DNA of 24,000 bases from Synechococcus sp. NB0720_010 (GTDB taxonomy: Bacteria; Cyanobacteriota; Cyanobacteriia; PCC-6307; Cyanobiaceae), in assembly GCF_023078835.1 (NCBI RefSeq), contig NZ_CP090898.1:784045-808044 (forward strand), in the 5' to 3' direction. Position numbers and translations under genes: made by a program. Of this stretch, positions 2 through 14,659 are shown piece after piece. Below the pieces are notes generated by a model. It searched no databases, had not been told where the DNA came from, and saw only the letters and a list, made by a program, of their open reading frames with translations. Numbering within the stretch: position 1 is the first letter of the stretch; every line of letters begins with the position of its first letter.

Positions 2-3000
2 ACCATATTTGCATTTAAGAGCGCACAAATCAATGAGCTCGAAATATTCGAAGTGCCTGGCCTCCAAATCGAAGGAGATGGATCCTGGTCCTTCGATCCA
101 GGAAACGCTGCTTACAATTCTCTACCTACAGGCGAAGAACTCACTATTCAGGTAACCTACTCAGCGACTGATGCAGATGGGCTAGTCGCCACTAACTCGT
201 TCACAATAACCGTTGAGGGCACGAATGATGATCCGTACTTGACGGATGAGGACTCACTTACTGAATTACTGGATAACGCAATCGAAGATCAAGGCAGAAA
301 CGGGAATCCATACACAATTGACCTCGATTTGCTAACATCTCCATTTGAGGATTATGACTACGCAGGAGGGACGAGTGAATCTCTAGAAGTCAAGGGACTT
401 AATGCATACAAACAAAACGGCGACGTCGCTGGCACTTTCGAAAGGATTGGCAACACATTCGTTTTCAGCCCCTTTAAGGATGTAGAAGGACTAATCAAGA
501 TTGAATATATAGTTACCGACAATAATGGAGGAGGAGTCACCGCTGAGACAACTCTCTTCATTGAAGCAGTCAATGATGCTCCAGAACTTGGAGCATTACC
601 CGATGGTGGGTTAGTCATGAAGAACGATGCTCAGGAAGACACTCCATTTACATTCACAGATGTTGACCTCATTAAAGGTTTCATAGATCCAGACAATGCT
701 GCTGATGGACTCGCAGACCTAAGTCTAAATCTCGAAATTACTGCCATTCCGTCAAGTCCCAATGGCACAATCCAGGTTGCTTCTTACTCTGGTCAACTCA
801 CATCCTCTGACGTCGATGCCTCCGGCACCCCCGACTTCTCACTGATCAGCGCTGAAATACCAGGTCTCTCGATCAATTCCGATGGTTCATGGTCATTCGA
901 CCCAACAAATGCCGCCTACGACAGCATCGAAAAAGACGACTCTCAAACGATCACTGTCAGCTACAGCGTCACTGATGATCAAGGCGCAACAGATCAAAAC
1001 TCTTTCACCATCAATCTCACTGGAACTGACTCCACCCCAATTGCGACATTCACTTCAGACCTGGAGGGGCCAATCCAGGCGATAGGGAGCTACATCTTTA
1101 GCCCAGACGAGAACTTCAATGGCACAACACAAGTTGACTTTGAGATAAGTGATAACGCTGGAGCGAAGACTTTCGGTTCAAAGTTTGTTGTCATAGCAGC
1201 AGACAATGATTCCCCAACAATCTCACTGCCCAATAATTCCTATGACGCATCTGTGGTTGCCGGCACGGCGCAGTTCTTAAGTACGAATGCTTTTGGTTAT
1301 CAGGACATCGAGGGGGATCCCATCCAAGGAGTTCGGATTGAGATTCCAAATGCGTCAGTTGGTTTGTTGCAATCGAGCAGCAAGGCATTCAGTGTGGAGG
1401 GATCACAAAGTCTCCCGACCGAAAAGATAGGAGAAAAGACTTACGTTACTGTCAGTCGTGATATATTAGTCAACAACAGGCTGTATTTTGAGGCTAAGAA
1501 TACTGCTATTGGCCTGAGCTCTACCTTGTCGTTCATGGTCAACGATGGAACAAACTGGTCAACTGAGGCAACAATTAAACTATCCGTCACGGGGGCTCCA
1601 AAATCGGCCGCCGAAGCCTTCAAAGAAGCCCAATACAAAGTCAACTTCGAGGAAATACTGGGAGACGATCGCTATTGGGCGATCAAACCAGTTGTTGCGG
1701 CAGCAGGCCTCACCAATGATGAAGCCATTACAGCTCTAAAGAAAGCTCCGAGCTACGCTAATTACGCAGCCAACGAAGTCGAGTATCTCAATGATATTGG
1801 TTGGTTCAATATTGTCTATCTCAACGAAGAAGGACTGCGAGAAGAAACGAGCTTGGATGATCTTTCAGCAGTTGATGCGATAAGCCTTGCGAATAGTCCG
1901 TTAGACACTATCTTCAATTCCGAGGAAAAGGAGTTCATCTCCGCACAACTTAACGATTCCCAAAACAAAACTATCGAAAGCACATTCTCTGCGATTGCAA
2001 ATGTCACGATCGAGGGCTTTAGTAATGCAGTTAATTCTGATGGGCTATCCGAAAATGTTATCACTAGTGCCGTAGATAAGATTAGACTTATCGCATCAGG
2101 TTCATTTAGTACAGATGAGCAGTACCTCCAGTTCTCTGCCTCATCCGTTGCGTTACGCGCCACGATTGCATCGCTCAAGTCAGGCTCGCTTCTATCCTCT
2201 ATATCTGATCAAGACCCACAGATTTTCAACCTTCTTGACGGGGTCAAGGAATCGAAGCTCGCCGGAATCGCTCAATCGCTGGGATCCCTTCCTGAGGGAG
2301 TCTCGTACACACCAGATCAATTAACTAGGCTCTCAAAGCTTGCTGACAAGGCAGCGAGTGTCGGAAACACGGAAGCTCTCAAACTCGCAACCCGGACTAT
2401 TGTTGATGGCAAAAAGTATTCTTCACTCGCTGACGGGGATTTGGACGACCTTCCAGCTGACGAGAAAGCTAGAGCCCTTACTCTAAAAGATGAATATTTG
2501 AGCATCCAAGCACTGAAAGTTCAAGCAGGACTAAGCAACCTCAGCGTTAACACTGCAATTAACAGCGGAGCCATTACCTCCCTAGATAACGACGATGCCA
2601 AGCGACTTGTTCTGTCAGAGCTACAAAGTAAGTCTCTTGGTGTAAGCGAGAATTCAAACGAGTTGGCAAGCGTGTCGAACAGTGCTGCATACCTTAATTC
2701 ACTTGATAGCCTGGTTATTGCTGCAACAAAGATAGAAGACAGTGGGAAGGCTGCTGAAATACTTGAACTAGCTCAGACGCTGGACAACGTCGCCCTTAGC
2801 TTCGCAGACAACCCAGAAGAACTAGACAGGGTGGTAGCACTTCAAGAACAGCTAGAAGAGGATTTCAAGTATTCAGTTACATTCAACGAGGATGAAATCC
2901 GCGCTCACTACGCTAAGAACTGGGTGACCATCAGTAGCATCTCCGGAAATGTCATTACTTTGGGAGAAGGTGACAACGCCCTCAAAGATGCCAATGGCAC

Positions 3001-5104
3001 TCCTATCACTACCATAGGAGAAGAATATGTTCTATTCAAGGAAAATGTGAGCCGGGAAGATATTGCACTAGTGCTCATCAACTCACGGAAGTTCCAACCG
3101 AAAGCAATTTCATTGGATGGGAGCAATCCTGCAACAATCACGCGCGCCGACACAGCTATCTACTCAGCAACAGACAAGGATGGAGACTCCTATATCGGAT
3201 CAATGGATGGCTCATATATTCTTAATGGCGAGACGTACTACTACAACACTGAAAACCCGACGGCCAATCGGTTCACTATCACCATTCCCGACGATTACGA
3301 TGAAAATCTGGCCGAAGCTGGTACTCAGATGTCCTATTTGATGAATTACACAGCCGGCGAAATCGACTTCGACAAAAACACCGGAGCATTTACCTTTACC
3401 GCCTCAAGCGGTATAAGCCCGGACAAAGTTGGATACGACCCTGACTCAGTTGACACTGTCCTGAAATATGTCTCAGAAGCAGACCTGCTGAAGTATGGGG
3501 CAACTGCTGGAGATGGAGAAGTTGGTGAAAGAGAGTTCAGCTGGAACAAAACCAATGAGAACCCAAATATCTTCGGCGATGGCGAACCGCTGATTGATTT
3601 AGACGGCAACATCATTACCAAAGCCGGCTGGTACGACTTCACACGCCGTGTCAATGAATTTGGAGTCGCGACAGGCGATGGTGGAGAATACCTCTACGCC
3701 AACTTCTCCAATGGTGTGTGGACTGCAAGTACAGACATCAATCAACTAGGTGAGATCGGAACACTTAGAGTTATTGGTCTAAGGCTTCGTTTTACTGACA
3801 ATAGGTTCGGCGACAAGGATCCAACTGCTGGGACAATTATTGACCCCTTCGGTACCGCAAAAGCAACCGGTAGCGAAGCCGAAGTCCTAGCTGGACGTGC
3901 AGCGATTTCCAATCCGGTCAAAGCCTCAACGATTACACAACAGGTAACACAGGTAACAACGACTCAGACAGTTTCTATCCCTTACAAACCAGAACTTGTT
4001 GATCTGAAGCCTGATTCTTCAGGTGTTGGATATGACGATCCAGGCAATGCACCAGGCCTTGGAATTGATGCCCGTGGAGAAGATCTCGATGCCATGTCTG
4101 TCGGAGATGGTGTCGGCACGGGCTATGGAGAAGGTTCAGGTCAAGGCGTCAACAACTCCAGTGGCTCCGGCGAGGAAGCCATGACCCTCACCCAGGCCCT
4201 CACCGCCTTTGCAGAGGGGGAGGGAGAAGGAAACTCCGAGTCCAACAAAGGTCAAAACGCTGAAGGCCAAGGCGCCGGTACTGGTGGTGAAGCTGCCCTT
4301 GGAGAAGACCAATCACCAAAAACCCAACGCAAGCGCGGTCTACTTCTGCAGCCCCTGGTCGATCAACTCGCCAGCGGCGCCGATGAACTCAAGACCAGCT
4401 CCACCCTGCTCAAGAACCTCAGCGAGGGTTCGGTCATGGGCACCAACCTGCTCGATGCCCTCGCCCTCGGTGCCGGCGTCCTCTACGTGCTCTATGCACC
4501 CAAGGCCGTTGAAACCGGTAAAAAGGGCTTCCGCGGATTGGTCAACCGCGTCATGAAGCGGGGTGGTGTCAATGCCGTCATTCCCGAGCAGAACCTACTC
4601 TCGGTCTTCGTCATGAAGATGCCCAATGGCGGCGAGCGCCTGATGGCCACCCGCGTCGGCTTGGGCGGCATGGAAGTGTTAGCCCAGCAGGATCTGCCGG
4701 CAGATGTCCGTGTCGATGCCGCAGGCAGCCAGACCCAGATCGACTACGCCATGAAGCAGTTGATCGCCAAGCTGGGCGCCCCCAATGCCGACCTGCTGCT
4801 GCTTGGTCCCAAGCTCAAGGGCCAAGCCGCGCTACTCAAGAACATGGCCAAGCAGACCCAACTGCTGAATACCCAGGACCTCACGAGCAGCCTCTCCTCC
4901 TGCAGCGCCACCGAACTGGAGGCCCTGCAGAACTGGCTCAACAAACCCTCCAGCACCCTGCCGGAGACCAGCCCGGTCTACGGCCAGATGCTGCAGCAGA
5001 TCACCGCTTATGCCGGTGCCATGCCGGCAGAGCAGGCCAACATGGCCGGCCTGATTGAGCTCAGCGTCGCCATGGGCTGGAGCCAAACCGGCAAAGCGGC
5101 CTAG
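2..5104 (+). CDS. Giant cell-surface repeat protein, 5'-partial (VCBS/cadherin-like modules, long non-repetitive region, Gly/Glu/Ser linker, hydrophobic segment, unique ~200-aa C-terminal domain)
   Basis: The reading frame is open from nt 2 to the TAG at 5102-5104. My hand translation of nt 2-52 finds no stop. The residues before the track's GTG at 53 (ELEIFEVPGLQIE) match the lead-in of the second repeat copy (ISAEIPGLSIN), so the gene continues upstream of the window. The first ~520 aa contain beta-type modules ending in GTNDDP / AVNDAPE / GTDSTP / AADNDSP plus the motif DGSWSFDP.NAAY, typical of VCBS/cadherin-like repeats in giant T1SS-type adhesins. I saw no GGxGxD RTX nonapeptide repeats. 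Confidence 0.85.
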   Translation, partial: TIFAFKSAQINELEIFEVPGLQIEGDGSWSFDPGNAAYNSLPTGEELTIQVTYSATDADGLVATNSFTITVEGTNDDPYLTDEDSLTELLDNAIEDQGRNGNPYTIDLDLLTSPFEDYDYAGGTSESLEVKGLNAYKQNGDVAGTFERIGNTFVFSPFKDVEGLIKIEYIVTDNNGGGVTAETTLFIEAVNDAPELGALPDGGLVMKNDAQEDTPFTFTDVDLIKGFIDPDNAADGLADLSLNLEITAIPSSPNGTIQVASYSGQLTSSDVDASGTPDFSLISAEIPGLSINSDGSWSFDPTNAAYDSIEKDDSQTITVSYSVTDDQGATDQNSFTINLTGTDSTPIATFTSDLEGPIQAIGSYIFSPDENFNGTTQVDFEISDNAGAKTFGSKFVVIAADNDSPTISLPNNSYDASVVAGTAQFLSTNAFGYQDIEGDPIQGVRIEIPNASVGLLQSSSKAFSVEGSQSLPTEKIGEKTYVTVSRDILVNNRLYFEAKNTAIGLSSTLSFMVNDGTNWSTEATIKLSVTGAPKSAAEAFKEAQYKVNFEEILGDDRYWAIKPVVAAAGLTNDEAITALKKAPSYANYAANEVEYLNDIGWFNIVYLNEEGLREETSLDDLSAVDAISLANSPLDTIFNSEEKEFISAQLNDSQNKTIESTFSAIANVTIEGFSNAVNSDGLSENVITSAVDKIRLIASGSFSTDEQYLQFSASSVALRATIASLKSGSLLSSISDQDPQIFNLLDGVKESKLAGIAQSLGSLPEGVSYTPDQLTRLSKLADKAASVGNTEALKLATRTIVDGKKYSSLADGDLDDLPADEKARALTLKDEYLSIQALKVQAGLSNLSVNTAINSGAITSLDNDDAKRLVLSELQSKSLGVSENSNELASVSNSAAYLNSLDSLVIAATKIEDSGKAAEILELAQTLDNVALSFADNPEELDRVVALQEQLEEDFKYSVTFNEDEIRAHYAKNWVTISSISGNVITLGEGDNALKDANGTPITTIGEEYVLFKENVSREDIALVLINSRKFQPKAISLDGSNPATITRADTAIYSATDKDGDSYIGSMDGSYILNGETYYYNTENPTANRFTITIPDDYDENLAEAGTQMSYLMNYTAGEIDFDKNTGAFTFTASSGISPDKVGYDPDSVDTVLKYVSEADLLKYGATAGDGEVGEREFSWNKTNENPNIFGDGEPLIDLDGNIITKAGWYDFTRRVNEFGVATGDGGEYLYANFSNGVWTASTDINQLGEIGTLRVIGLRLRFTDNRFGDKDPTAGTIIDPFGTAKATGSEAEVLAGRAAISNPVKASTITQQVTQVTTTQTVSIPYKPELVDLKPDSSGVGYDDPGNAPGLGIDARGEDLDAMSVGDGVGTGYGEGSGQGVNNSSGSGEEAMTLTQALTAFAEGEGEGNSESNKGQNAEGQGAGTGGEAALGEDQSPKTQRKRGLLLQPLVDQLASGADELKTSSTLLKNLSEGSVMGTNLLDALALGAGVLYVLYAPKAVETGKKGFRGLVNRVMKRGGVNAVIPEQNLLSVFVMKMPNGGERLMATRVGLGGMEVLAQQDLPADVRVDAAGSQTQIDYAMKQLIAKLGAPNADLLLLGPKLKGQAALLKNMAKQTQLLNTQDLTSSLSSCSATELEALQNWLNKPSSTLPETSPVYGQMLQQITAYAGAMPAEQANMAGLIELSVAMGWSQTGKAA
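74..235 (+). repeat. VCBS-like 54-aa module, copy 1 (GDGSWSFDPGNAAYNSL...FTITVEGTNDDP)
   Basis: This 162-nt in-frame module aligns with copy 2 at 878-1039 at 29 of 54 residues by my hand alignment. The DNA is diverged at many synonymous positions. Confidence 0.7.
878..1039 (+). repeat. VCBS-like 54-aa module, copy 2 (SDGSWSFDPTNAAYDSI...FTINLTGTDSTP)
   Basis: Same length (162 nt) and same motif order as copy 1. It is preceded by EIPGLSIN, compared with EVPGLQIE before copy 1. Confidence 0.7.
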
Positions 5105-5113
5105 GACCACAGC

Positions 5114-5133
5114 GGGGGCTGCACCCAGCCCCC
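5114..5133. terminator. GC-rich hairpin between convergent genes (candidate bidirectional intrinsic terminator)
   Basis: gggggctg (5114-5121) / loop cacc / cagccccc (5126-5133) forms a perfect 8-bp stem. It lies in the 38-nt gap between the giant-gene stop (5104) and the stop of the minus-strand HExxH gene (5143). There is no clear U-tract on either side, so its function as a terminator is not certain. Confidence 0.5.
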
Positions 5134-5142
5134 CCTCAGTCC

Positions 5143-5631
5143 TTAGCGGCAGCGTTCTTTTAAGGCCGCAATGATCAGCGGGAATGCCTTGGGGTTGCCC
5201 TGCATCGCGAATGCCTCACGCTCCACGTCGAACTTGGCGTGGGCATAGTTGCGGTAGAGGATTCCAGCCACCTCGCGGTCAACGGCATTCACCATCGACG
5301 TTGGCCAGCCGATGGTCTCCAGCTTCCCTGTCTTGCAGCCCTGGGCTCCATGGACGGCCTCATGAATCAAGGTTTGGCGGCCAATGCCCAAGTCCACTGC
5401 AATCGGTGCCACCCAAATGATCTTTTTGCGGGAGTTCGTTGCGCCATAGGCCCCCTGAATCGGCGGCTTTTCAAAACGCACTTGATAACCCGCCTGCTGC
5501 AAGGCCTTCACCAAGGGCAGCCAATCAGCCGGCCATTGGGGGGCCGCACTAGCACGGAGGGCCGCAGCACCACACAACAAAGCCAACGCTCCAAATGAGC
5601 AGGCCAGACGCCGAAATGGAATGATTGTCAT
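5143..5631 (-). CDS. Secreted small HExxH-motif protein (putative zinc metallopeptidase-like), last gene of the minus-strand string
   Basis: The 162-aa protein has an N-terminal signal-peptide-like region (MTIIPFRRLACSFGALALLCGAAALRASA|AP, with an AxA site). It contains an HEAVH motif in LIHEAVHGAQGC and a downstream acidic stretch (DVEREAF) that could supply a third ligand. GGAG lies 11 nt upstream of the ATG (5643-5646 on the minus strand). I did not recognise a family beyond the motif. Confidence 0.6.
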   Translation of the reverse strand: MTIIPFRRLACSFGALALLCGAAALRASAAPQWPADWLPLVKALQQAGYQVRFEKPPIQGAYGATNSRKKIIWVAPIAVDLGIGRQTLIHEAVHGAQGCKTGKLETIGWPTSMVNAVDREVAGILYRNYAHAKFDVEREAFAMQGNPKAFPLIIAALKERCR

Positions 5632-5646
5632 GCGGTCATCAGCTCC

Positions 5647-6321
5647 CTACTGAACCGTGAGGTTGCGGCCGGAATTGCCCCAGAAATAGATCGGGTCGTC
5701 CTTGTACCAAGGCTCCCAACCGATCGGCACCTTGTACTCCAGCGCCTTGTTCTTGATGGCTCGGTAGGCCTCAAAGCCATCGTTCTCCAGCACAACAAAC
5801 ACCGCTTTTTTCTCCTTGGCCAAACGCTGCATCGTTTGATCCAGCCAACCTTCTTTCTTTTTGAGATCAGCCGCCAGGACCGTCGGCGGACCATTGCGGC
5901 GAATCAGGCCATTGGCATGGCTCACGCTCATGCCGATCGGTCCGACTTGGGCCTCGCGCTTCCAGCCATCCAATTCCCGATCACAAGCTTCCTTCTCTGG
6001 CGGCAGCAGTTGTTCGCAGCGGTTGACTTCACCCGCCCGCTGCCGGTCGAGCTTCACCATCTGCTCCACCGCAGGTTGCAAATCCCACAGACCCTCCTTC
6101 GCTGCTTGCAGCAGCACGAAGTTGCGGGAGCTTTTTTGCTGCATTGGCGCCTGAATGTTCAGGGCACTCGAGGTGGCGAAGATGCCGGTCAAAGAACCAA
6201 TCAGCGCCATCACCCCCACCACGTTGGAGAGGATGTCCATCAGGCCGTCACTGCTGTCGCTAGTAACTCCTCCGCCACCACGGCGGCTACGGCGTCTCAG
6301 CAGGAGGGAACGCTGACCCAT
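5647..6321 (-). CDS. ExbD/TolR-like single-pass membrane protein, paralog 2 (224 aa)
   Basis: The N-terminus is basic (RRRSRRGGGG). Asp residues sit immediately before one TM helix (DGLMDILSNVVGVMALIGSLTGIF). The periplasmic domain's C-terminal part (AVFVVLENDGFEAYRAIKNKALEYKVPIGWEP) parallels paralog 1 (YLVIGVRPSAFRDFESIRSKAEARRLSIGYEP). Its start overlaps the upstream stop (TAATG at 6319-6323), implying translational coupling. Confidence 0.65.
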   Translation of the reverse strand: MGQRSLLLRRRSRRGGGGVTSDSSDGLMDILSNVVGVMALIGSLTGIFATSSALNIQAPMQQKSSRNFVLLQAAKEGLWDLQPAVEQMVKLDRQRAGEVNRCEQLLPPEKEACDRELDGWKREAQVGPIGMSVSHANGLIRRNGPPTVLAADLKKKEGWLDQTMQRLAKEKKAVFVVLENDGFEAYRAIKNKALEYKVPIGWEPWYKDDPIYFWGNSGRNLTVQ

Positions 6322-6791
6322 TAACCGGCTCCCTCTACTGCGGGCATCCCTACCGGCAGCTGCACTTTCAAGCCAGCCTCGAGGGGCTCATAGCCAATCG
6401 AGAGGCGTCGAGCCTCGGCCTTGGAGCGGATGGACTCAAAGTCGCGGAAGGCACTGGGACGCACGCCGATCACCAAGTACTGGGGCTTGGAGTTCTTGGC
6501 GATGGCATCGAGGAACTGCTCGAGACCCTGGTCTTTGAGATTCCAAGTCCGGCGCTGTCCTTGGCCGATCACCTCGACCTTGCCGCCGCCCTCACAAAGG
6601 ATGTAATTCGCTTCTTTGCCTTTTCCTTCTCCCCCCGCGGGGAGCAATTGAATCGCCTGAACGCCGGGCTTGATCTGCAGCGCGCAGATCACAATCAGCA
6701 GGGACTGCACGCCAATCGTGGCGGCCATGATGTTGAGGAAGGAGAAGAGATCCACTCCCTCGTCATTCTTTTTTCCCCTGCGGCGCCCCAT
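6321..6791 (-). CDS. ExbD/TolR-like biopolymer-transport protein, paralog 1 (156 aa)
   Basis: The layout matches E. coli ExbD. There is a basic N-terminus (MGRRRGKKNDEG), then an Asp preceding the TM (VDLFSFLNIMAATIGVQSLLIVI, compared with ExbD DINVTPFIDVMLVLLIIFMV), then a ~110-aa periplasmic alpha/beta domain. There is no OmpA/MotB-type peptidoglycan-binding region. The ATG lies 3 nt after the MotA-like stop. Confidence 0.7.
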   Translation of the reverse strand: MGRRRGKKNDEGVDLFSFLNIMAATIGVQSLLIVICALQIKPGVQAIQLLPAGGEGKGKEANYILCEGGGKVEVIGQGQRRTWNLKDQGLEQFLDAIAKNSKPQYLVIGVRPSAFRDFESIRSKAEARRLSIGYEPLEAGLKVQLPVGMPAVEGAG

Positions 6792-6794
6792 GAA

Positions 6795-8117
6795 TCAACC
6801 CCGGCCAAACCAGCGCCGGCGGGCCGGTTCCAGCCGGGCCACGCTGGCGTTCAGGGTTTCAATCGAGCGGCGCAGTTCCACCAGCGCCTGCACCTGATCC
6901 ACCCGCTCCGCCTCTGTGTAGCTGCCGGTGGACAGCCGCTCGAGTCGGCTCAACACAGGTTCGAGTGCCCGCAGGGATTGATTGAGCTCCTGGGAGAGAC
7001 CATCCATGCTGCCCCGGATCACATCCGCTTGGTCCTGCAGGCTCAGCCGCGCCTCGGCCACGCCCTCAACCGAATCACGTACAAGATTGGTGAGCGGGGA
7101 GAGCTTCTCCAGCGTCGCCTCCGTCAGCTGATTCGCGTAGGCCTGGGCCGGCTCCACAAGAACCGAAGGATCCGGCAGGTGCTTCTCAAACGCATCACTG
7201 ATCAACGCACCCAGGTCTTCTGAGGCGAGCCCGGTCAGCTGCTCAATCGCTTCAGCTTGGGGTTGCTGCTTCGTCCCCGTTGCTTCGGGGCCATCGGGGA
7301 TCTCGCCATCGCCTGTGGGGCTGAGGGCCATCACGGCTTCGCGCACTTCGCCATCGATTTGGCTGAGCAGGCGATCCTCCAGGCGCTCACAGGCATTGAG
7401 CGGGAAGGTGAAGATCACCGAGACCACCAGAGCCAAATAGGTGGTGTCGAATGCCGTACCCAGACCCGAGGTCACCTTGGTCAAGCCATTCTTCAAACCA
7501 TCGACGTTGTCGGCATTGCTGAGCACCGCATCAAAGGAACCAACGGCCGAGGACATCCCGATCACGGTGCCGATGAAGCCCAGCAACGGAATCGCCCAGA
7601 GCAGCACTTTCGGCAGACTGAAGCTGGATTGACTCGAGAGCTCATAGAGCTCCACGTCGGAATCGGCCGAGCGCTCCAACTGGAACGAGGAACCGGTACT
7701 GCGCCAAACATCCAGCAGCCGCAGCAAACGCTTGCCGACCAGCGAGGCCGAGCGCTCCGCTTGGTTGGTCAAGGCATCGAGGTCGCCACTACGGATCGCC
7801 TGGGCAATCGAGAGATCAAAGGCCAGATAGGCCTTCTTCTCGCGTTGAAGGATCCGCCATTTATTGATGATGAAGGCCAGCAACATCCCGCCCATCGCCA
7901 GCACGAAGACCTGGGTGGGGCCCCGTTGATGCAGAAAATCGTGGAAGGGCATCCCCTGGGGCGTGGCGATGGCCCAGAGCAAGAAGCCCCCAATCCCGCC
8001 CGGCACCAGCCAGCGCAGCAGCTTGGGATCCAGGTCATTGCCCAGGCCCAGGCTGACCGTGGGTGTGGCGGCAACGCTGGTGTTGGTTTGGGTTAAGGGC
8101 GGGAAATTAGCGACCAC
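6795..8117 (-). CDS. MotA/ExbB/TolQ-family ion-channel protein with extended C-terminal helical tail (440 aa)
   Basis: Four hydrophobic helices fall at about aa 36-52, 68-86, 170-189 and 219-240, with an ~83-aa loop between TM2 and TM3 (a MotA-like topology). The family core PLLGFIGTVIGM...GLGTAFDTTYLALVVSVIFTFPLN resembles ExbB GLLGTVWGIM...GIAEALLATAIGLVAAIP. Residues ~265-440 are an extra Leu/Glu/Arg/Gln-rich helical region. The start is a GTG (8115-8117), and the next Met would delete TM1. Confidence 0.8.
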   Translation of the reverse strand: MVANFPPLTQTNTSVAATPTVSLGLGNDLDPKLLRWLVPGGIGGFLLWAIATPQGMPFHDFLHQRGPTQVFVLAMGGMLLAFIINKWRILQREKKAYLAFDLSIAQAIRSGDLDALTNQAERSASLVGKRLLRLLDVWRSTGSSFQLERSADSDVELYELSSQSSFSLPKVLLWAIPLLGFIGTVIGMSSAVGSFDAVLSNADNVDGLKNGLTKVTSGLGTAFDTTYLALVVSVIFTFPLNACERLEDRLLSQIDGEVREAVMALSPTGDGEIPDGPEATGTKQQPQAEAIEQLTGLASEDLGALISDAFEKHLPDPSVLVEPAQAYANQLTEATLEKLSPLTNLVRDSVEGVAEARLSLQDQADVIRGSMDGLSQELNQSLRALEPVLSRLERLSTGSYTEAERVDQVQALVELRRSIETLNASVARLEPARRRWFGRG

Positions 8118-8160: not shown

Positions 8161-8487
8161 TCAGGCAGAGCGGGTGTTGTCCCACTCCTGCCACTCGACC
8201 TCCACATCACCCACACCAGCGCTGGCCGGGGGCGGGATGCGGGTCAGCAGATCGTTCGGCAAGCCCAGGCGTTGGAACACGGCCTTGCGCTGCTCAACGG
8301 GCATTGCTGAGAAGGAGCGGACGACGTCGCGCACCTTGTGCTCGTTGTACACCAGGCCCATCAACTCCTCCTGGTCCTTGGCCTCGAGGGCCTGGAACCA
8401 GCGCAGAAATTCATCAACGCGGCTGTTGAGATCAGTGGAACCAGTGGTCATGGGAGAGGCGGATGAGGTGAGAGAGGAGTGCTGCAC
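8161..8487 (-). CDS. Small hypothetical protein between the HlyD and MotA-like genes (96-108 aa)
   Basis: The ORF is co-oriented and fills the gap between 8529 and 8117. The track start is a GTG at 8487; an ATG at 8451 (MTTGSTDLN...) is an alternative. It has no signal peptide or TM and I recognised no family. Coding status is supported mainly by position and non-degenerate composition. Confidence 0.45.
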   Translation of the reverse strand: MQHSSLTSSASPMTTGSTDLNSRVDEFLRWFQALEAKDQEELMGLVYNEHKVRDVVRSFSAMPVEQRKAVFQRLGLPNDLLTRIPPPASAGVGDVEVEWQEWDNTRSA

Positions 8488-8528: not shown

Positions 8529-9704
8529 TCATTTCGATGAGCGGATGCTGCGCAGGGAATCGAAGGCCTTCTGCACCGCATCGGTGAGCAGGGTGATCAC
8601 CCGCTTGTCGCGCAGGACCAAGTTGGCCTGAACGCTCTGGCCTGCACTGATCTCGTAGCGATCGCGCCCCTTGGTGAGGTAATCGCGATCGAGACTGATG
8701 TAGGCCGGGAAGCGGGGCTGGGGGTTCTGCTGGTCCGGCTCCAGCGGCAAGGTGCCAACGGATTTGAGCTTCCCATCGATCGACCCGAACTGGGTGTAGG
8801 GGAAAGCATCGACGCGGACTTGGGCCGCCATTCCCTTGTTCAAGAAGCCCACATCGCGGTTGGTCACATAGACCTTCGCCTCAAGAATCCCGCCCGGAAC
8901 CACCTTCACCAAGGTCTCGCCAGCCGCCGCGGCGTAGCCCGGGCTTGAGGGGACCAAGCCATAGACCACGCCATCAAGGGGGGCCCGCAGCACCTCTTTG
9001 TTCTGGGTGTCCTGAACCTCCACCAGCTGACGCTCCAGATCCGCCAGCTCCCGCAAAGACTCCTGCTTCATCTTCAGCAGCTGGGCTTGCACCTCCTGGA
9101 GGTTGGCCCGGGCCTGGGCAATCTCCGATTCCAACTGCTCAACCCGGTTGCGCTGCTGAAGCACCTGCATCCGCTGGATCCCCCCTTCACGCGCCAAGGG
9201 AACGATGTTGTTGTAGATCTCCTTTTCAGTGGAGAGGGCACGGCCCAAACCATTCATCCGCTCCCGCAAACTCTGCTCGCGGGACTGGATCGAGCGGCTC
9301 TCTTCGTTAAAGCGGGTGGTCTCGAGTTTGAGCTGTTTCTCGAGGGTCTCCGCCCGCTTTTTGGAGACCTCCGCATCGAGGCGAATCAGCGCTTCACCAG
9401 AGCTGACCTTCTGGCCTTCCTTCACCAGGATGTCCTTCACGACCCCCGCGAATGGCGCCTTAAGCGGGCGTTCCGCACCGAGGGGCTGCAGCTCCCCTTG
9501 GGCCAGCACCACCTCATCAATCTTGGCGAAGCAGGCGAAGACGAAACCAAAGGAGGCGCTGCCAATGATCGTCCAGGCCAAGGCGCGGCTCCAGACCGGT
9601 GCCGGACGCAGACGGACCTCCTGAGGGTCCATCGGCCTGACCACCAGGGCCGACATATTGGCCTTCACAAGATTGGACTTCGAGGGGGGCTTCTGATCCA
9701 TCAC
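8529..9704 (-). CDS. HlyD-family membrane fusion / periplasmic adaptor protein of a type I secretion system
   Basis: The 391-aa protein has a short cytoplasmic N-terminus and one TM (WTIIGSASFGFVFACFA). A lipoyl-like segment follows (VLAQGELQPLG...VKDILVKEGQKVSSGEALIRLD), then a long coiled coil (aa ~110-235), a second lipoyl half and a beta-barrel. It directly abuts the ABC gene stop. The start is GTG at 9704 or ATG at 9701. Confidence 0.9.
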   Translation of the reverse strand: MMDQKPPSKSNLVKANMSALVVRPMDPQEVRLRPAPVWSRALAWTIIGSASFGFVFACFAKIDEVVLAQGELQPLGAERPLKAPFAGVVKDILVKEGQKVSSGEALIRLDAEVSKKRAETLEKQLKLETTRFNEESRSIQSREQSLRERMNGLGRALSTEKEIYNNIVPLAREGGIQRMQVLQQRNRVEQLESEIAQARANLQEVQAQLLKMKQESLRELADLERQLVEVQDTQNKEVLRAPLDGVVYGLVPSSPGYAAAAGETLVKVVPGGILEAKVYVTNRDVGFLNKGMAAQVRVDAFPYTQFGSIDGKLKSVGTLPLEPDQQNPQPRFPAYISLDRDYLTKGRDRYEISAGQSVQANLVLRDKRVITLLTDAVQKAFDSLRSIRSSK

Positions 9705-12700
9705 TCAAACCTCCTGCTGGTGATACAACGTGGCATAACGACCATCGAGAGCCATCAACTCTTCATGGGTTCCCTGCTCAACAAGGGCTCCTTGATCCAT
9801 CACCAAGATGTGATCGGCGGCTTTCAAAGAGGCCAGGCGGTGGGTAATAAAGAAGACCGTGCTGCCCTTGTAGAGCTCCATCAAATTGGCCGTCAGACGC
9901 CGCTCGGTGTCGACATCCAATGCGCTGGTGGCCTCGTCCAGCACCAGAAGGCGCGGACGCCGCAGGATCATCCGAGCAATGGCCAAGCGTTGACGCTGGC
10001 CGCCGCTTAGGCCTGCACCCCGCTCACCTACGGAGCTGCTGTAGCCCGACGGCATCGCCTGGACAAAATCGTGAGCGCAAGCCACCTGGGCGGCCAGAAC
10101 CACCTCTTCGAAGGAGGCATCGGGACGGGTCAGGGCAATGTTGGAGAGGATCGTGCCGTCAAACAGCAGGCTGTCCTGCGGCACCACACCGATTTGAGCA
10201 CGCAGGGAATAGAGGTCCACCTTGCTGATGTCGTTGCCATCAATGCGAATCAGGCCCTCTTCCGGTTCATACAAACGGGTGAGCAATTTGAGCATTGTGC
10301 TCTTGCCCGAGCCCGAGCTGCCGACGACCCCCACAAAGGAGCCGGGGGGAATGTCGCAACTGACATTGCTGAGCTGAAGTTTGCCCTGCTCGGCAAAGCG
10401 GAAGCTGACGCCGGAGTACTCAACCTGGCCGACGATCGGCGGGATCGGTGGTTTCTGCTCTCCAGTGATTTCCAGCTCCTGGGGGTGATCGACGATGTCC
10501 GCCAGGCGCTCCAGCGACAGGGCGGTTTCCTGGAAGTTCTGCCAGAGGTTGGCCATCCGCAGCAGCGGGCTGGTGACATAGCCCGCCAGGATCCGGAAGG
10601 CGATCAGCTGACCCAGGGTCATCTGACCTTTGAGCACCAGCGAGGCACCGATCCAGAGGACGATCAGACCGGAGAGTTGCTCCAGGAACTGACTGGCCGA
10701 TCCGGCTGCCGTGCTGGTGACGACGTTGCGGAAGCCCGACTGGATCTGTCCGCCGTAGAGCTGTTGCCAGCGCCAACGGCTATGGATCTCCATGCTTTGG
10801 CCCTTGATCGTCTCCATCCCGCCGAGGGTTTCCACCAGATGGCTCTGGACCCGTGAATTGGCTTCGGCCTGCTCCCGCAGCTGCTTACGGATGATGGGTG
10901 CCGTCAGGGCGGTTAAGCCGACAAACAGCGGCACCACCGCCAGGGCCCAGAAGGTGAGTTGCACGGAATAGAGCAACATCACCGCGATGTAGATCACCGC
11001 GAAGACCGCATCCAAGATCACCGTCAGGGCCGTGCCGGTAAGGAAGCGTCGGATCTTCTCCAGTTCATTCAGGCGGCTGCTGACTTCACCCACCGGGCGG
11101 TCGGCGAAATAGCCCAGGGGCAGCCGCAACAGGTGATCGATGATCGTCGATCCCAGGCTGATGTCGATTCGATTGGTGGTGTCGGAGAAGAGATAGGTGC
11201 GCAGGGACGAGAGCACCGCCTGGGCCAAAGCCATCGCCACCAGCAGCGTGCCCAGCACGTTCAAGGTGCTGACGTTGCCCTGGCTGATCACCGCATCAAT
11301 GATCTGCTGAATCAGCAGCGGGTTGAGCAAGCCAAACAGCTGCACAAAAAAGCTGGCGATCAGCACCTGAACCAGCACGCCCTTGTGCTGCTTGAGAGCC
11401 GGCAGGAACCAAGCCAGACCAAAGCGCTTTTTGGGGGTCTTGTGGCTGCGCTCAATGCAGAGCACCGGCAGGTTGCCCTCCTCATCGCGCCCCTCCAGGG
11501 CACTGATCGCTACCGGGCCCTGGCCCGAGGCGGGATCACTGATCAGGACTTGCCCGGCCATGTCGCTGGCCCAGATCACCACCGGACCACTGCCGCCCAT
11601 CACCAAGGCTGGAAGCTGCAAGCGCGGGATCTGGGCGTCATTCACGCTCAGCTGCGAAGCGCGCAGCCCCATCAAATCGGCAATGGCCGCCAGCTGCAGC
11701 AGGCCAATGCCCGCTCCGGTGGTGTCCCGCTGGATCTGGTCTTCGAGGATCCGGGTCAGCACGTCCTTGCGGAAGGGCAGATCGAAGTAACGCGCCAGCA
11801 TCCGCAGCGCCGCCATCGGCCCCTCCACAGGCCCCTCGCCGCTGAGATGGGGGAAGGTGCCGTCATCCCCCAGGCGGCCGTACCAGTCCTCAAGAGCCTC
11901 CTGTTGACGCTCCACAGCGACGATCGCGGCGGAGCTTTCCTGCCAGTCGGGCTCCAGGAGTTCAGCTTCAGTGGGCTCGGCCTCTTCCTCGCCGGCCTCC
12001 GGGGCCAGCACCATCACCGGTGGCCGCTCCATCGGCGGCGTGGCGCCCCCCTTGGCCAGCAAACGGGCGGGCAGCTTGCCCTTCACCGTCAGCTTCAGCG
12101 GGCCCAGGAGTTCTTCACCGGGGTTCGCCCCGGCCACATTGCTGCTGCTGACGAGCCAGGGCCCCCAGCTGGAGCCGAATTGATGCTCACCCGGGGGCAA
12201 CAGCAACACCTGCTGCTCACCCGCCGCCTCTTCCAGTTGATTGCTAGCCCAGTCACGAAGGTCCCGGCGCTCGGGCAGCCGCGGCGCTGGGCTCGAAGAC
12301 GCGACGGCGAACAACTCCTCGAGACTGGGCTGGGCCAAGGCCAACTGCAGTGGCGGGTGCTCCATCACCACCTGCAGGAAGACCGCCTGGGGCATCAGCC
12401 AGAGCTGGCTCGGCTGGGAGGCGGCCAAAGCCTGGCCCGTCACACCCCGCAAGAGTCCGATGTCGCCTGCTGTGTCACCCGGGGAAAGCCGGCGCAGCGT
12501 GAAAGGAACGTCCTGCTCATCGAGCGCCAACAGGCGCATCTGCCCCTTGGCCAGCAGGGCCACACCCGGCGGCAGAGCGTTGTAGTCGTACAGCTTCTGC
12601 CCCGGCCTCAGCTGGAGCGCTTGCAAGGACTCAGCAATGCGCGCCTGAGAGCTCTTCGGCAGCTTGGAGAAGGGCTCCCAGCTACTGACCAACCGCAATG

Positions 12701-12716
12701 CAAGGGTCAGCTGCAT
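9705..12716 (-). CDS. Three-part ABC exporter: N-terminal cNMP-binding-like domain, C39-like (apparently non-catalytic) domain, 6-TM ABC transporter with NBD (1003 aa)
   Basis: The NBD motifs are Walker A GVVGSSGSGKST, signature LSGGQRQRLAIAR and Walker B LLVLDEATSALD. The TMD spans about aa 440-720. Aa ~10-125 look like a CAP-effector/cNMP fold (LRPGQKLYDY...GDTAGDIGLLRGVTGQALAAS...LWLM). Aa ~290-425 resemble a C39 peptidase-like domain (GPMAALRMLARYFDLPF...LPALV...VVIW...VLISDP). Confidence 0.9.
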   Translation of the reverse strand: MQLTLALRLVSSWEPFSKLPKSSQARIAESLQALQLRPGQKLYDYNALPPGVALLAKGQMRLLALDEQDVPFTLRRLSPGDTAGDIGLLRGVTGQALAASQPSQLWLMPQAVFLQVVMEHPPLQLALAQPSLEELFAVASSSPAPRLPERRDLRDWASNQLEEAAGEQQVLLLPPGEHQFGSSWGPWLVSSSNVAGANPGEELLGPLKLTVKGKLPARLLAKGGATPPMERPPVMVLAPEAGEEEAEPTEAELLEPDWQESSAAIVAVERQQEALEDWYGRLGDDGTFPHLSGEGPVEGPMAALRMLARYFDLPFRKDVLTRILEDQIQRDTTGAGIGLLQLAAIADLMGLRASQLSVNDAQIPRLQLPALVMGGSGPVVIWASDMAGQVLISDPASGQGPVAISALEGRDEEGNLPVLCIERSHKTPKKRFGLAWFLPALKQHKGVLVQVLIASFFVQLFGLLNPLLIQQIIDAVISQGNVSTLNVLGTLLVAMALAQAVLSSLRTYLFSDTTNRIDISLGSTIIDHLLRLPLGYFADRPVGEVSSRLNELEKIRRFLTGTALTVILDAVFAVIYIAVMLLYSVQLTFWALAVVPLFVGLTALTAPIIRKQLREQAEANSRVQSHLVETLGGMETIKGQSMEIHSRWRWQQLYGGQIQSGFRNVVTSTAAGSASQFLEQLSGLIVLWIGASLVLKGQMTLGQLIAFRILAGYVTSPLLRMANLWQNFQETALSLERLADIVDHPQELEITGEQKPPIPPIVGQVEYSGVSFRFAEQGKLQLSNVSCDIPPGSFVGVVGSSGSGKSTMLKLLTRLYEPEEGLIRIDGNDISKVDLYSLRAQIGVVPQDSLLFDGTILSNIALTRPDASFEEVVLAAQVACAHDFVQAMPSGYSSSVGERGAGLSGGQRQRLAIARMILRRPRLLVLDEATSALDVDTERRLTANLMELYKGSTVFFITHRLASLKAADHILVMDQGALVEQGTHEELMALDGRYATLYHQQEV

Positions 12717-12845: not shown

Positions 12846-13535
12846 TTACTTGGCCGGCGTAGCGCGCATCTGCTCCTGGAGCCACTGATCACCGAGCTCC
12901 AAAGCCAGGTCCCGGCGGTAGCCCTGGTTGAACACCGCTGGCTGCAGCTCATCCAGGCGAAGCAGCACCCAGCCCCCCTCCGCCGGACGCGGAGGCCAGA
13001 TGTGGCCGGGCTTACTCACCCGCAGCAACTCACTGAGAGCCTCAGGGAGCTGGCCCAAGGGCGTCGGTCCCTGCTTCCCCGTTGGCAGTTGCCCCGTCAC
13101 GCCAGGCAAGGTGCACCAGAGCTGCTCAAAACTGTTTTCCCGCTCTGAGAGCTGAAGAAAGAGCTCCTGGGCCATCGCCTCGTCCTCGACCCAGATCAGG
13201 GAATAGACCACCTGATCGAGTTGGCTCTTGCGCTTCAAAAACAAAGTGGAGGCCTGAGCTCGGAAGCGCTTCTCGCAGAGAAACTGCCAGCGCAGTTGCC
13301 GCTCAGCTAAGGCTTTGAGGTCCTCTTCGGAGAGGCCGTAGGACTGAATCCAGCGTTGGGCCTCGGCCTGGGTCTTCAATCCCTGGCGCTGCAGCCAGAT
13401 GGGGATTGCCTGCTCCTGTTGCTCCGGAGTGAGGCCAGGCTCCTTGGCCAGCAAGGCATCGCGAGTGAGCTCCCGCTGGACCAAAGCGCCATAGCCCCAA
13501 GCCGCCAGCTGCTGCTGCGACTTTTGATCGATCAC
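12846..13535 (-). CDS. Parvulin (PpiC)-like domain protein, probably degenerate PPIase/chaperone (229 aa)
   Basis: The C-terminal ~100 aa follow the parvulin pattern (VVYSLIWVEDEAMAQELFLQLSE..NSFEQL....GP.PLGQLPEALSELLRVSKPGHIWPP...GGWVLLRLDE). The N-terminal half is helical, SurA/PrsA-like. The GTG start at 13535 is uncertain. This is a pattern match by eye only. Confidence 0.45.
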   Translation of the reverse strand: MIDQKSQQQLAAWGYGALVQRELTRDALLAKEPGLTPEQQEQAIPIWLQRQGLKTQAEAQRWIQSYGLSEEDLKALAERQLRWQFLCEKRFRAQASTLFLKRKSQLDQVVYSLIWVEDEAMAQELFLQLSERENSFEQLWCTLPGVTGQLPTGKQGPTPLGQLPEALSELLRVSKPGHIWPPRPAEGGWVLLRLDELQPAVFNQGYRRDLALELGDQWLQEQMRATPAK

Positions 13536-13566: not shown

Positions 13567-14559
13567 TTAAGCCGCCAGATAGGCGTGCATCTCCTCGGAG
13601 CGGCGGCGCAGCTCTTCGTGGGCCTTGCGCTCGAGGCTGCGGGCACGGTCGCGGCTCATCTCAAGCGCACGGGCAATGGAGCTCAGGCTCATGGGCTCCT
13701 CAACATCGATGCCGTAGCGCATCTTCAGCACGCGGCCCTGCAGGTCCGGCAGCTGGTCCAAGAGTCCCCGCATGTCCATGCGCAGGCACTCCCCATCCAC
13801 CAGCTCTGACGGCTGGGTGCCATCGGCGGCCAGCAGATCCAGCAGCTCCGTGTCATCGCCGTCGCCCACCTTCGTCTCCAGGCTCACGGGCTGGCGCGCG
13901 CGGCAGAGCAGGTCCTTCACCTCCTCCTCAGGAAGGTCCACAAACTCGGCCAGCTCCGTCACCGTCGGCGTGCGGCCCAGCTCCTGGCTCAGCTCACGCT
14001 GCCCCTTCTTGAGCTTGTTCAGCGTCTCGGTGATGTGGATCGGCAGCCGGATCGTTCGGCTCTTCTCAGCAATCGCCCGCGTGATCCCCTGGCGGATCCA
14101 CCAGTAGGCATAAGTCGAAAACTTGTAGCCCCGGGTCGGGTCGAACTTTTCAACACCCCGCACCAAGCCAATCGTTCCCTCCTGGATCAGGTCCAGAAGC
14201 TCCATGTTCCGCTTGGTGTACTTCTTCGCCACGCTCACCACCAACCTCAAGTTGGCGGCCACCATCCGCTCCTTGGCCCGCTGACCACTCCTCAGGCGCT
14301 TCTTGAGCTGAACCTGCGTCAGACCCGCTTCCTTCGCCAGCACCGCAGGCGAAGGCTTCTCCACACCCTCACGGCTCGCGAGTTCCTGCTCCAGCTCCTC
14401 CAGCGCCACCAGCTCTTGGACCTGGCGACCCAAGGTGATCTCCTGCTCGTGGGTCAGCAGCGGCACCCGGCCGATATCCCGCAGATACGAGCGCACCAGG
14501 TCCGTTCCACCGGCCAGCGCGGTGTCGCGGACAGCACGAAGGATCGGAACAGAGGGCAT
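13567..14559 (-). CDS. Sigma-70 family RNA polymerase sigma factor (group-2-like, 330 aa)
   Basis: Region 1.2/2 reads YLRDIGRVPLLTHEQEITLGRQVQ and GTIGLVRGVEKFDPTRGYKFSTYAYWWIRQGITRAI. Region 3 reads IRLPIHITETLNKLKK. Region 4 reads LKMRYGIDVEEPMSLSSIARALEMSRDRARSLERKAHEEL. I trimmed the track ORF (13567-15030) to the ATG at 14559 (cat at 14557-14559). The upstream 157 aa are Ser/Arg/Pro-rich and antisense to the pseudouridine synthase gene. Confidence 0.9.
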   Translation of the reverse strand: MPSVPILRAVRDTALAGGTDLVRSYLRDIGRVPLLTHEQEITLGRQVQELVALEELEQELASREGVEKPSPAVLAKEAGLTQVQLKKRLRSGQRAKERMVAANLRLVVSVAKKYTKRNMELLDLIQEGTIGLVRGVEKFDPTRGYKFSTYAYWWIRQGITRAIAEKSRTIRLPIHITETLNKLKKGQRELSQELGRTPTVTELAEFVDLPEEEVKDLLCRARQPVSLETKVGDGDDTELLDLLAADGTQPSELVDGECLRMDMRGLLDQLPDLQGRVLKMRYGIDVEEPMSLSSIARALEMSRDRARSLERKAHEELRRRSEEMHAYLAA

Positions 14560-14572
14560 CAGCGAAAACGAA

Positions 14573-14596
14573 TTACGAAACCCAGGTGTTTCGTAA
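14573..14596. promoter_or_regulatory. Perfect 9-bp inverted repeat with 6-nt spacer in the divergent sigma / pseudouridine-synthase intergenic region (candidate operator or 5'-UTR hairpin)
   Basis: ttacgaaac (14573-14581) ccaggt gtttcgtaa (14588-14596). It lies 14-37 nt upstream of the sigma start codon (14559) and ~64 nt upstream of the + strand ATG at 14660. I cannot name a regulator. Confidence 0.35.
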
Positions 14597-14659
14597 AGCT
14601 GTTGCGGAACCGTATCACTTTTTTCTGATGAGCAAAATGCTTTTGGGCACAGCGCTGAG

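Follow-up and report, generated by a model that had tools for sequence, protein, structure and literature searches.

A MotA/ExbB-superfamily protein with a conserved, helical cytoplasmic tail, encoded beside a type I secretion system and a giant surface protein in picocyanobacteria

What does a long C-terminal tail do on a MotA-like membrane channel subunit, and why is such a subunit encoded with a type I secretion system (T1SS) on one side and a giant surface protein on the other? The question is raised by a stretch of 24,000 nucleotides from Synechococcus sp. NB0720_010 (contig NZ_CP090898.1, positions 784,045 to 808,044 of the forward strand), here called the window, in which all coordinates are counted unless a locus number is given with them. 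A 440-residue protein, termed the A subunit, is encoded there on the minus strand, followed by two single-pass membrane proteins, termed B1 and B2. Judged by its sequence, the A subunit is a MotA/ExbB-superfamily protein with an intact ion-path signature. Its tail is cytoplasmic, conserved and largely helical, and it most likely serves the three-gene module formed by A, B1 and B2 as a cytoplasmic element for coupling or assembly. The parts of the A gene are as follows, with transmembrane helices abbreviated as TM and the AlphaFold2 (AF2) predicted local distance difference test as pLDDT.

6795..8117, minus strand: A subunit, a 440-residue MotA/ExbB-superfamily (ZorA-like) protein, assigned by PF01618, homologues and Foldseek; stop codon 6795-6797
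7968..8021, minus strand: TM1 (residues 33-50), an extra N-terminal helix compared with ExbB/TolQ, from hydropathy and AF2
7617..7916, minus strand: TM2 (residues 68-86) and the cytoplasmic loop (residues 87-167), from hydropathy and AF2
7389..7616, minus strand: TM3 (residues 168-190, WAIPLLGFIGTVIGM), the periplasmic loop and TM4 (residues 222-243, AFDTT), with invariant residues
7224..7322, minus strand: variable, disordered Gly/Pro/acidic linker (residues 266-298), pLDDT below 50 at residues 268-294, conservation 0.47, variable in length
7008..7223, minus strand: most conserved tail block (residues 299-370), ISDAFEKHLPDPSVLVEPAQAYA...VRDSVEGVAEARLSLQDQ, conservation 0.84
6930..7148, minus strand: long amphipathic helix of 73 residues (324-396), 3.55-residue periodicity, within an AF2 helix at residues 317-396
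6798..6914, minus strand: terminal helix (residues 402-433) and the basic-aromatic end RRRWFGRG, with end motifs also in relatives

The gene is a 440-codon open reading frame (ORF) with a GTG start, according to the ORF list and translation, and the start codon can be regarded as fixed because the N-terminus MIANFPPL... is conserved among homologues in the alignment. Pfam MotA_ExbB (PF01618) matches residues 143-254 with 34.7 bits against a cutoff of 22.9, and a Foldseek search with the core retrieved TolQ, ExbB, PomA and ZorA at probabilities of about 1.0, with TolQ and ExbB as the best matches. Hydropathy places four TM helices at about residues 33-51, 65-90, 164-196 and 217-246, and the AF2 monomer has helices in the same places (33-50, 67-101, 167-200 and 205-265). 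The loop between TM2 and TM3 is about 80 residues long and basic (11 K/R). A preliminary description of the locus, made from the letters alone, had proposed this MotA-like topology, which is borne out. Both superfamily marks, a P-x-x-G-x-x-G-T motif in the penultimate helix and a polar Thr in the last, are present. Across the cyanobacteria and the Planctomycetes-Verrucomicrobia-Chlamydiae (PVC) group, P177, G180, F181, I182, G183, T184, V185, G187, A222, F223, D224 and T226 are invariant and T225 is kept in at least 90% of the members. The TM3-TM4 region aligns to ZorA 8vvn.

The orientation in the membrane follows from relatives. An N-terminal CxxC...CxxC zinc ribbon was found in 61 of the 134 family representatives described below, and the alignment places it in members from Planctomycetes, Verrucomicrobia and Schekmanbacteria (loci L010, L011, L012, L014, L015 and L017); the picocyanobacterial A subunits are without it. 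Since the zinc ribbon of these relatives must be cytoplasmic, the N-terminus of the A subunit lies inside, and with four TM helices the C-terminal tail is therefore cytoplasmic as well, as had been supposed earlier. The positive charge of the TM2-TM3 loop agrees with this topology.

About 175 residues lie beyond TM4 and end in RRRWFGRG, as first described. The most frequent of them are L (25), A (20), E (19), S (15), R (14), G (12) and Q (12), and the tail is net acidic (29 D/E versus 17 K/R). AF2 predicts tail helices at residues 299-313, 317-396 and 402-433 and disorder at residues 268-294. Residues 299-370 are the best conserved stretch of the whole protein, with a mean column conservation of 0.84 versus 0.78 for the channel core; this block contains AFEKHLPDPSVLVEPAQAYA and the invariant motifs AFExHLPDPSVLVxPA and VRDSVEGxxEARLxLQxQ. 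The hydrophobic periodicity of residues 324-396 peaks at 3.55-3.57 residues, and none of 2000 shuffles reached a peak as high, for the window sequence as well as for the family mean, which upholds the helical, heptad-like spacing read from the letters. The periodicity of the last helix (residues 402-433) was not significant, and a turn lies between it and the long helix. The tail is thus not one uniform coiled coil, as a variable linker parts its helical domain from TM4; the 73-residue amphipathic helix is likely to bundle. A search of the tail against Pfam at an E-value of 10 returned no family, merely sub-threshold coiled-coil noise.

A homologue search of 5.8 billion proteins found 426 A-subunit homologues. 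Nearly all of the best 120 of these span the full query, with lengths of about 420-460 residues and 58-97% identity, and the shorter sequences among them are truncated (77-93% coverage). The preliminary description had allowed that the extension might be missing from homologues and so reflect an artefact; a read-through, fusion or frameshift was rejected because the tail is kept in frame by nearly all of the best 120. When 1.84 billion cluster representatives (50% identity clusters) were searched with a profile, 3150 proteins matched at E <=1e-3 and 1727 at E <=1e-10. Tail lengths were taken from the 134 best representatives with a complete core, in which the median length beyond the core is 186 residues (interquartile range 137-232, maximum 719), with at least 100 residues in 91%. 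Databases give the family generic names, namely 'MotA/TolQ/ExbB proton channel family protein' or 'hypothetical protein', and in the literature we found no paper on the picocyanobacterial cluster or the A family.

The tail also carries motifs that recur over wide distances. A basic-aromatic C-terminal ending is found as RRRWFGRG in the window and as KKGWFGR and RRWGLFGRK in Planctomycetes/Verrucomicrobia relatives, and a second ending, KPRxITLxEE, recurs in other relatives. The AFEKHLPDPSVLVEPAQAYA block is recognisable in Anabaena (AFQKHLPSPEVLIKPAQEYA), in Microcystis and in one Verrucomicrobia homologue. The Planctomycetes/Verrucomicrobia relatives share the C-terminal end motif only, with an AFxxHLPDP-like block also in one of them (L013). 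The tail is ancient and intrinsic to the three-gene module rather than to one genomic context.

MotAB, ExbBD, TolQR and ZorAB share one layout, in which an A subunit precedes single-pass partners that carry a TM aspartate; here, two candidate partners directly follow the A gene.

6321..6791, minus strand: B1, a 156-residue single-pass protein with a basic N-terminus, the TM motif VDLFSFLNIM and a small periplasmic alpha/beta domain
5647..6321, minus strand: B2, a 224-residue single-pass protein with Asp29 at the start of its TM helix (LMDILSNVVGV), a periplasmic domain and two invariant Cys

A and B1 are separated by 3 nucleotides, and B2 overlaps the B1 stop codon by 1 nucleotide. Both B proteins have a basic N-terminus, one TM helix and a periplasmic alpha/beta domain, and they are paralogous (hhalign probability 98.1%). 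An adjacent single-pass subunit with a conserved TM aspartate was found in B2, which is translationally coupled and in which D29, C102 and C113 are invariant; its LxDxxTNVVG motif is retained in PVC and plasmid homologues, and the AF2 model of its periplasmic domain reaches pLDDT 80-94. B1 is present in all related loci and has the motif (D/S/N)LF(S/P)F(L/M)xI(M/L), with no invariant acid, the Asp not being invariant. The A-B1-B2 triplet with the same TM motifs occurs in Planctomycetes, Verrucomicrobia, one Schekmanbacteria metagenome-assembled genome (MAG) and two cyanobacterial plasmids. Profile searches with B1 and B2 against the PDB found nothing, and neither matched PF02472 or any other Pfam family at an E-value of 10. 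Comparison of B1 and B2 by hhalign with E. coli ExbD, whose sequence was verified against the PDB, gave no match (probability 0.4%), and Foldseek with the B2 periplasmic domain returned nothing significant, TolR standing at rank 24 with a probability of 0.3.

The preliminary description had compared the A subunit with ZorA of the Zorya anti-phage systems. A search of the full-length family profile against the PDB was swamped by apolipoprotein and coiled-coil proteins matching the tail, and it was redone with a core-only profile. The nearest solved protein by sequence is ZorA of the Shewanella ANA-3 type I Zorya system (PDB 8VVN), which the full protein matches at E 4e-4 in an alignment that runs from TM3 into the first ~140 tail residues. 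The same structure was matched at E 0.067 with the single-sequence core and at E 0.0055 with the core-only family profile, which gave E 0.15 for C. jejuni MotA and E 0.5 for TolQ. The likeness to ZorA accordingly stands as far as the nearest solved relative and the helical tail are concerned, and it fails for membership in Zorya: NCBIfam antiphage_ZorA_2 scored 20.3 bits against a cutoff of 100, the best ZorA match in PADLOC was at E 1e-8 and 32 bits, and no ZorC, ZorD, ZorE, ZorF, ZorG or ZorB-type partner was found in the operon by Pfam, NCBIfam or PADLOC.

The second half of the question concerns the neighbourhood. The module lies in a minus-strand operon with the order PpiC-like protein, HlyB-type ATP-binding cassette (ABC) exporter, HlyD, ~96-residue protein, A, B1, B2 and 162-residue protein, and it faces a convergent giant gene.

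8529..12716, minus strand: type I secretion system, with the HlyB-type ABC exporter at 9705-12716 and the HlyD adaptor at 8529-9704
8161..8451, minus strand: small soluble protein of about 96 residues directly upstream of A, no TM helix and no family match
5143..5631, minus strand: 162-residue secreted protein with a HEAVH motif, the last operon gene, with a signal-peptide-like N-terminus
2..5104, plus strand: giant cadherin-like/Big_9 surface protein, 3' part, convergent and running off the window

Eleven related picocyanobacterial loci were examined, from Vulcanococcus, from Cyanobium, from marine Synechococcus (MIT S9452, AG-670-A05) and from metagenomic contigs. All have the gene order of the window, at 58-90% identity of A, and in every one the module stands between the HlyB/HlyD T1SS and the convergent giant cadherin-like protein. 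The T1SS and module genes are tightly spaced on a single strand, with a gap of 0 nucleotides between the HlyB and HlyD genes; a promoter and terminator scan gave no sites above chance. The exporter matches TIGR01846 with 696 bits and the adaptor TIGR01843 with 177 bits, and both have Pfam matches too. The exporter (9705-12716) carries an N-terminal cyclic nucleotide monophosphate (cNMP)-binding domain (residues 35-120), an acidic linker of about 170 residues and a C39-like domain, a region in which there is no Cys. This combination of a cyclic-nucleotide-binding domain with a Cys-less C39-like domain suggests second-messenger control over the giant protein's export. The ~96-residue protein is conserved upstream of A in every picocyanobacterial locus (the ORF list gives 108 residues from an upstream GTG) and is a candidate cytoplasmic partner of the tail.

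Of the remaining genes, the 162-residue protein has HEAVHxxQxC and EREAF motifs conserved in five loci and no match in any family library searched, Pfam included. Possibly it is a small metalloprotease of the periplasm, in which case the adhesin might be under LapG-like proteolytic control. The PpiC-like protein that heads the cluster (12846-13535, minus strand) has a weak match to TIGR04500, a putative peptide-maturation family. Upstream of it, at 13567-15030 on the minus strand, lies a group-2-type sigma factor with an N-terminal extension of about 170 residues, and this adjacency was seen in freshwater and brackish relatives only (L006, L008).

At least 1683 codons of the giant gene are visible in the window, with Cadherin_5 and Big_9 repeats, and a C-terminal region of about 680 residues is conserved. 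The protein was found downstream of the module in L004, L005, L006, L008, L028 and L031. GC content is 46% in its repeat body and 60-69% in the final ~1.1 kb of the gene and in the remainder of the genome. With the last ~260 residues as a separate query, 75 homologues were found, all unnamed and from picocyanobacteria only. Repeated gene calls present this C-terminal domain as a separate gene of 309 residues; this was rejected, as the frame in L026 is open to the contig edge and the calls are therefore artefacts of contig edge or start choice. A link to SwmB and Synechococcus swimming found no support either, the homologues of this domain being unnamed picocyanobacterial proteins only, and the SwmB swimming literature consulted for such a link mentions no MotA-like gene.

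Several further observations concern the giant protein and its junction with the operon. The visible ORF has one weak TM-like segment (residues 1461-1485), then a basic stretch, and after it a conserved domain of about 200 residues found in picocyanobacteria only; a C-terminal membrane anchor would be hard to square with the C-terminus-first mode of type I secretion. In a MAG resembling Synechococcus UW140 (L008, 11128-18906) there are two separate matches to the C-terminal module, which suggests two tandem giant proteins with a common C-terminal handle. In the window the convergent stop codons are 38 nucleotides apart (5105-5142), with a GC-rich inverted repeat, GGGGGCTG-CACC-CAGCCCCC, between them; it could be a bidirectional terminator and is absent from the output of the consensus terminator scan.

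Outside picocyanobacteria the surroundings are of another kind. On plasmid pANACY.03 of Anabaena cylindrica the module (L029, 11959-14538) directly follows type III-B Cmr and CARF-HEPN genes, with viperin nearby. On plasmid p1 of Microcystis NIES-2481 (L030, 11956-14556) it lies between an HKD+Snf2 helicase-nuclease, itself a weak ZorD1 match, and a DUF559 protein, and it adjoins a CBASS-like nucleotidyltransferase with an effector of two TM helices. These plasmid modules in defence islands may represent an unrecognised Zorya-like type of defence. The neighbours of the PVC copies are not conserved, and the defence genes around them amount to just a generic UvrD-like helicase.

The reading that we favour, with a probability of about 0.5, is that A, B1 and B2 form an ion-driven motor complex with a coupling tail, which serves the T1SS and giant protein at a post-secretion step. 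The MotA/ExbB/ZorA-like A subunit and the translationally coupled B1 and B2 would constitute an ion-driven complex of the inner membrane, in which, by analogy with the solved 5:2 motors, five A subunits would surround a B1-B2 heterodimer. Ions would pass B2 Asp29 and the polar residues T184 and T225/T226 in TM3 and TM4 of A, and their passage would be turned into relative rotation or a conformational cycle. Each tail, with its flexible linker of about 30 residues, its AFEKHLPDPSVLVEPAQAYA block, a probably bundling 73-residue helix and a basic-aromatic end, would be comparable to the ZorA tail and would link the motor to a cytoplasmic partner, for which the cytoplasmic domains of the ABC exporter and the small upstream protein are candidates. 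In picocyanobacteria the module would have been built into the operon of an HlyB/HlyD T1SS facing a giant surface protein, and the membrane potential would be used, as SiiAB of Salmonella suggests, to control retention, release or tension of the giant protein rather than its export.

Several points weigh against this reading. Profile searches, hhalign, Pfam and Foldseek gave no sequence or fold link from B1 and B2 to ExbD, TolR, MotB or ZorB, and because homology to known B subunits was not detected, the 5:2 architecture is drawn by analogy. B1 and B2 also have no peptidoglycan-binding domain recognisable with OmpA, PGBD or ZorB models, unlike SiiA, MotB and ZorB. The disorder of the linker argues against a rigid torque-transmitting rod. 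The AF2 monomer of the A subunit is of moderate confidence (pLDDT 67; about 50-65 in the tail). Finally, the module occurs without T1SS or giant protein on the Anabaena and Microcystis plasmids and in PVC bacteria.

The last point bears directly on what the tail touches. Because module and tail motif occur where both the exporter and the giant protein are absent, the tail is not dedicated to either, and since the tail is kept in Anabaena and Microcystis its core role belongs to the module itself. The exporter's cytoplasmic domains and the C-terminus of the giant protein, the targets named in the preliminary description, are possible, and for the exporter the binding of SiiF by SiiB in Salmonella is a precedent; for the same reason, the tail more likely makes its primary contact inside the module or with a universal feature, for instance the membrane surface or the N-termini of the B subunits, and contact with the exporter would then be a secondary adaptation.

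A broader proposal can be put forward only tentatively: A, B1 and B2 might represent an undescribed class of ion-driven 5:2-type motor, sister to ZorAB and plugged into different outputs. Taken as a whole, this proposal comprises a heterodimeric axle without peptidoglycan anchor, a short tethered tail, a mechanical or allosteric coupling of the membrane potential in picocyanobacteria to the T1SS and its giant surface protein, with control over retention, shedding or tension of a cell-surface shield, and a stand-alone anti-phage module in other cyanobacteria.

Among the rivals, the one that survives best, though we consider it unlikely, is a Zorya-like defence sensor, which would sense perturbation of the envelope (for example by phage DNA injection) and whose tail would relay the signal to effectors in the cytoplasm or trigger membrane depolarisation; the adjacency of T1SS and giant protein would then reflect a shared surface/defence island and not one machine. 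ZorA is indeed the nearest solved relative, the only models that match in PADLOC are those of ZorA, every truncation of the ZorA tail abolishes defence, and the Anabaena and Microcystis plasmid modules lie among defence genes. Cyanobacterial plasmids are, however, rich in defence genes anyway, so that two adjacencies are weak evidence, and the PVC neighbourhoods offer just the generic helicase mentioned above. In the picocyanobacterial operon, Pfam, NCBIfam and PADLOC detected neither a nuclease nor a helicase effector, and a ZorB-type peptidoglycan-binding domain is missing. The PADLOC matches are weak (best E 1e-8), and the score against the NCBIfam ZorA model stays below its cutoff. That all 11 loci keep the module in one single-strand operon with the T1SS argues for a functional tie.

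Quite unlikely, in our view, is a tail without any output role, acting as an assembly or autoinhibitory element in pentamer formation or ion gating, with the output of the complex lying in the periplasm through the B1 and B2 domains. Several facts would suit such a role: ZorA motors do not assemble when the whole tail is removed, conservation of the tail in the A family does not depend on genomic context, the net-acidic tail offers a possible docking site for the basic N-termini of B1 and B2, and the periplasmic domain of B2 is well folded and conserved. Yet the invariant AFEKHLPDPSVLVEPA block exceeds the core in conservation and looks more like a specific binding surface than generic bundling, and the two alternative conserved C-terminal endings suggest partner-specific docking.

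A surface-motility or adhesin-transport motor that moves the giant protein as GldLM-SprB or AglRQS-Glt would, with the tail anchored to a cytoplasmic track, is improbable: one A with two different B-type subunits recalls AglR/AglQ/AglS, B subunits without peptidoglycan anchor recall GldM, a giant repetitive surface protein adjoins the module, and some marine Synechococcus require giant proteins such as SwmB to swim without flagella, but the C-terminal domain of the giant protein has no SwmB link, motility is not known from Vulcanococcus and Cyanobium, the cluster contains no genes for a cytoskeleton or track, and the module also stands alone on plasmids.

The interest of the locus extends beyond this genome. 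The ion-driven 5:2 motors MotAB, ExbBD, TolQR, GldLM and ZorAB form a small group through which membrane energy reaches other cell compartments, and here a large A family is joined to B subunits and a tail with no Pfam or PDB match. Giant surface proteins are thought to be important for resistance to grazing and phages, and the constant association of the module with a T1SS and such a protein in picocyanobacteria, which are abundant worldwide, provides a way to learn how these proteins are held, released or regulated. The plasmid copies, in turn, raise the possibility of the new Zorya-like defence type considered above.

Compared with known systems, the module appears to be a variant of a known machine type, its family being large, uncharacterised and found in two contrasting kinds of genomic surroundings, and its function is one that we infer. 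MotA/PomA share with the A subunit the four TM helices and the large cytoplasmic TM2-TM3 loop; the partners differ in having no OmpA domain, and no flagellar genes are present. ExbB-ExbD and TolQ-TolR share the PF01618 domain and small single-pass partners without an OmpA domain, and the predicted beta-alpha-beta C-terminal pattern of the B-type partners recalls ExbD and TolR. Unlike the A subunit, with four TM helices and its N-terminus inside, ExbB and TolQ have three with the N-terminus outside and no long C-terminal tail; a Pfam/NCBIfam scan found no TonB/TolA-like gene in the cluster, and there is no PF02472 partner. AglR/AglQ/AglS likewise combine one A-type with two different B-type subunits, GldL has a cytoplasmic C-terminal region, and both AglRQS and GldL/GldM are motors that serve a large surface adhesin with B subunits lacking a peptidoglycan anchor. 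They differ in having no sequence relation beyond the superfamily and in TM number and domain layout, and Glt and type IX secretion system genes are absent here.

ZorA (8VVN; E. coli ZorAB 8QYD) resembles the A subunit in its long periplasmic TM3-TM4 loop, which aligns, and in a helical, amphipathic cytoplasmic C-terminal extension that is a family hallmark, and relatives of A occur in defence islands on two cyanobacterial plasmids. ZorA tails are, however, 280-507 residues long, that of E. coli forming a 70-nm pentameric coiled coil continuous with the TM domain, whereas the A tail has about 175 residues and is tethered by a disordered, variable linker. The A subunit also has an extra N-terminal TM helix and often, in its relatives, a zinc ribbon, and it is partnered by two B paralogues that lack a peptidoglycan-binding domain, with no ZorC, ZorD, ZorE, ZorF or ZorG. 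The module is not a Zorya system.

By context, the closest system is SiiAB of Salmonella pathogenicity island 4 (SPI-4), a proton channel of the MotAB kind whose genes accompany those for the SiiCDF T1SS and for the giant adhesin SiiE. Secretion proceeds without SiiAB, but surface retention of SiiE and adhesion require it; the retention is proton-motive-force dependent, and two-hybrid assays show SiiB binding to the ABC protein SiiF. The two systems differ in that SiiA has an OmpA-like peptidoglycan-binding domain, none being detected in B1 and B2, in having one B subunit versus two, and in the secreted HExxH protein, the small soluble protein and the cNMP-binding domain of the exporter that the picocyanobacterial cluster adds. 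They are alike in uniting, in one cluster, a MotAB-like channel with an HlyB/HlyD-type T1SS and a giant adhesin of Ig or cadherin repeats, in a C39-like domain on the ABC protein, and in a critical TM aspartate in the B-type subunit. How SiiAB-type proteins help T1SS adhesins is unsolved even in Salmonella, and the picocyanobacterial cluster provides an independent, evolutionarily distant case.

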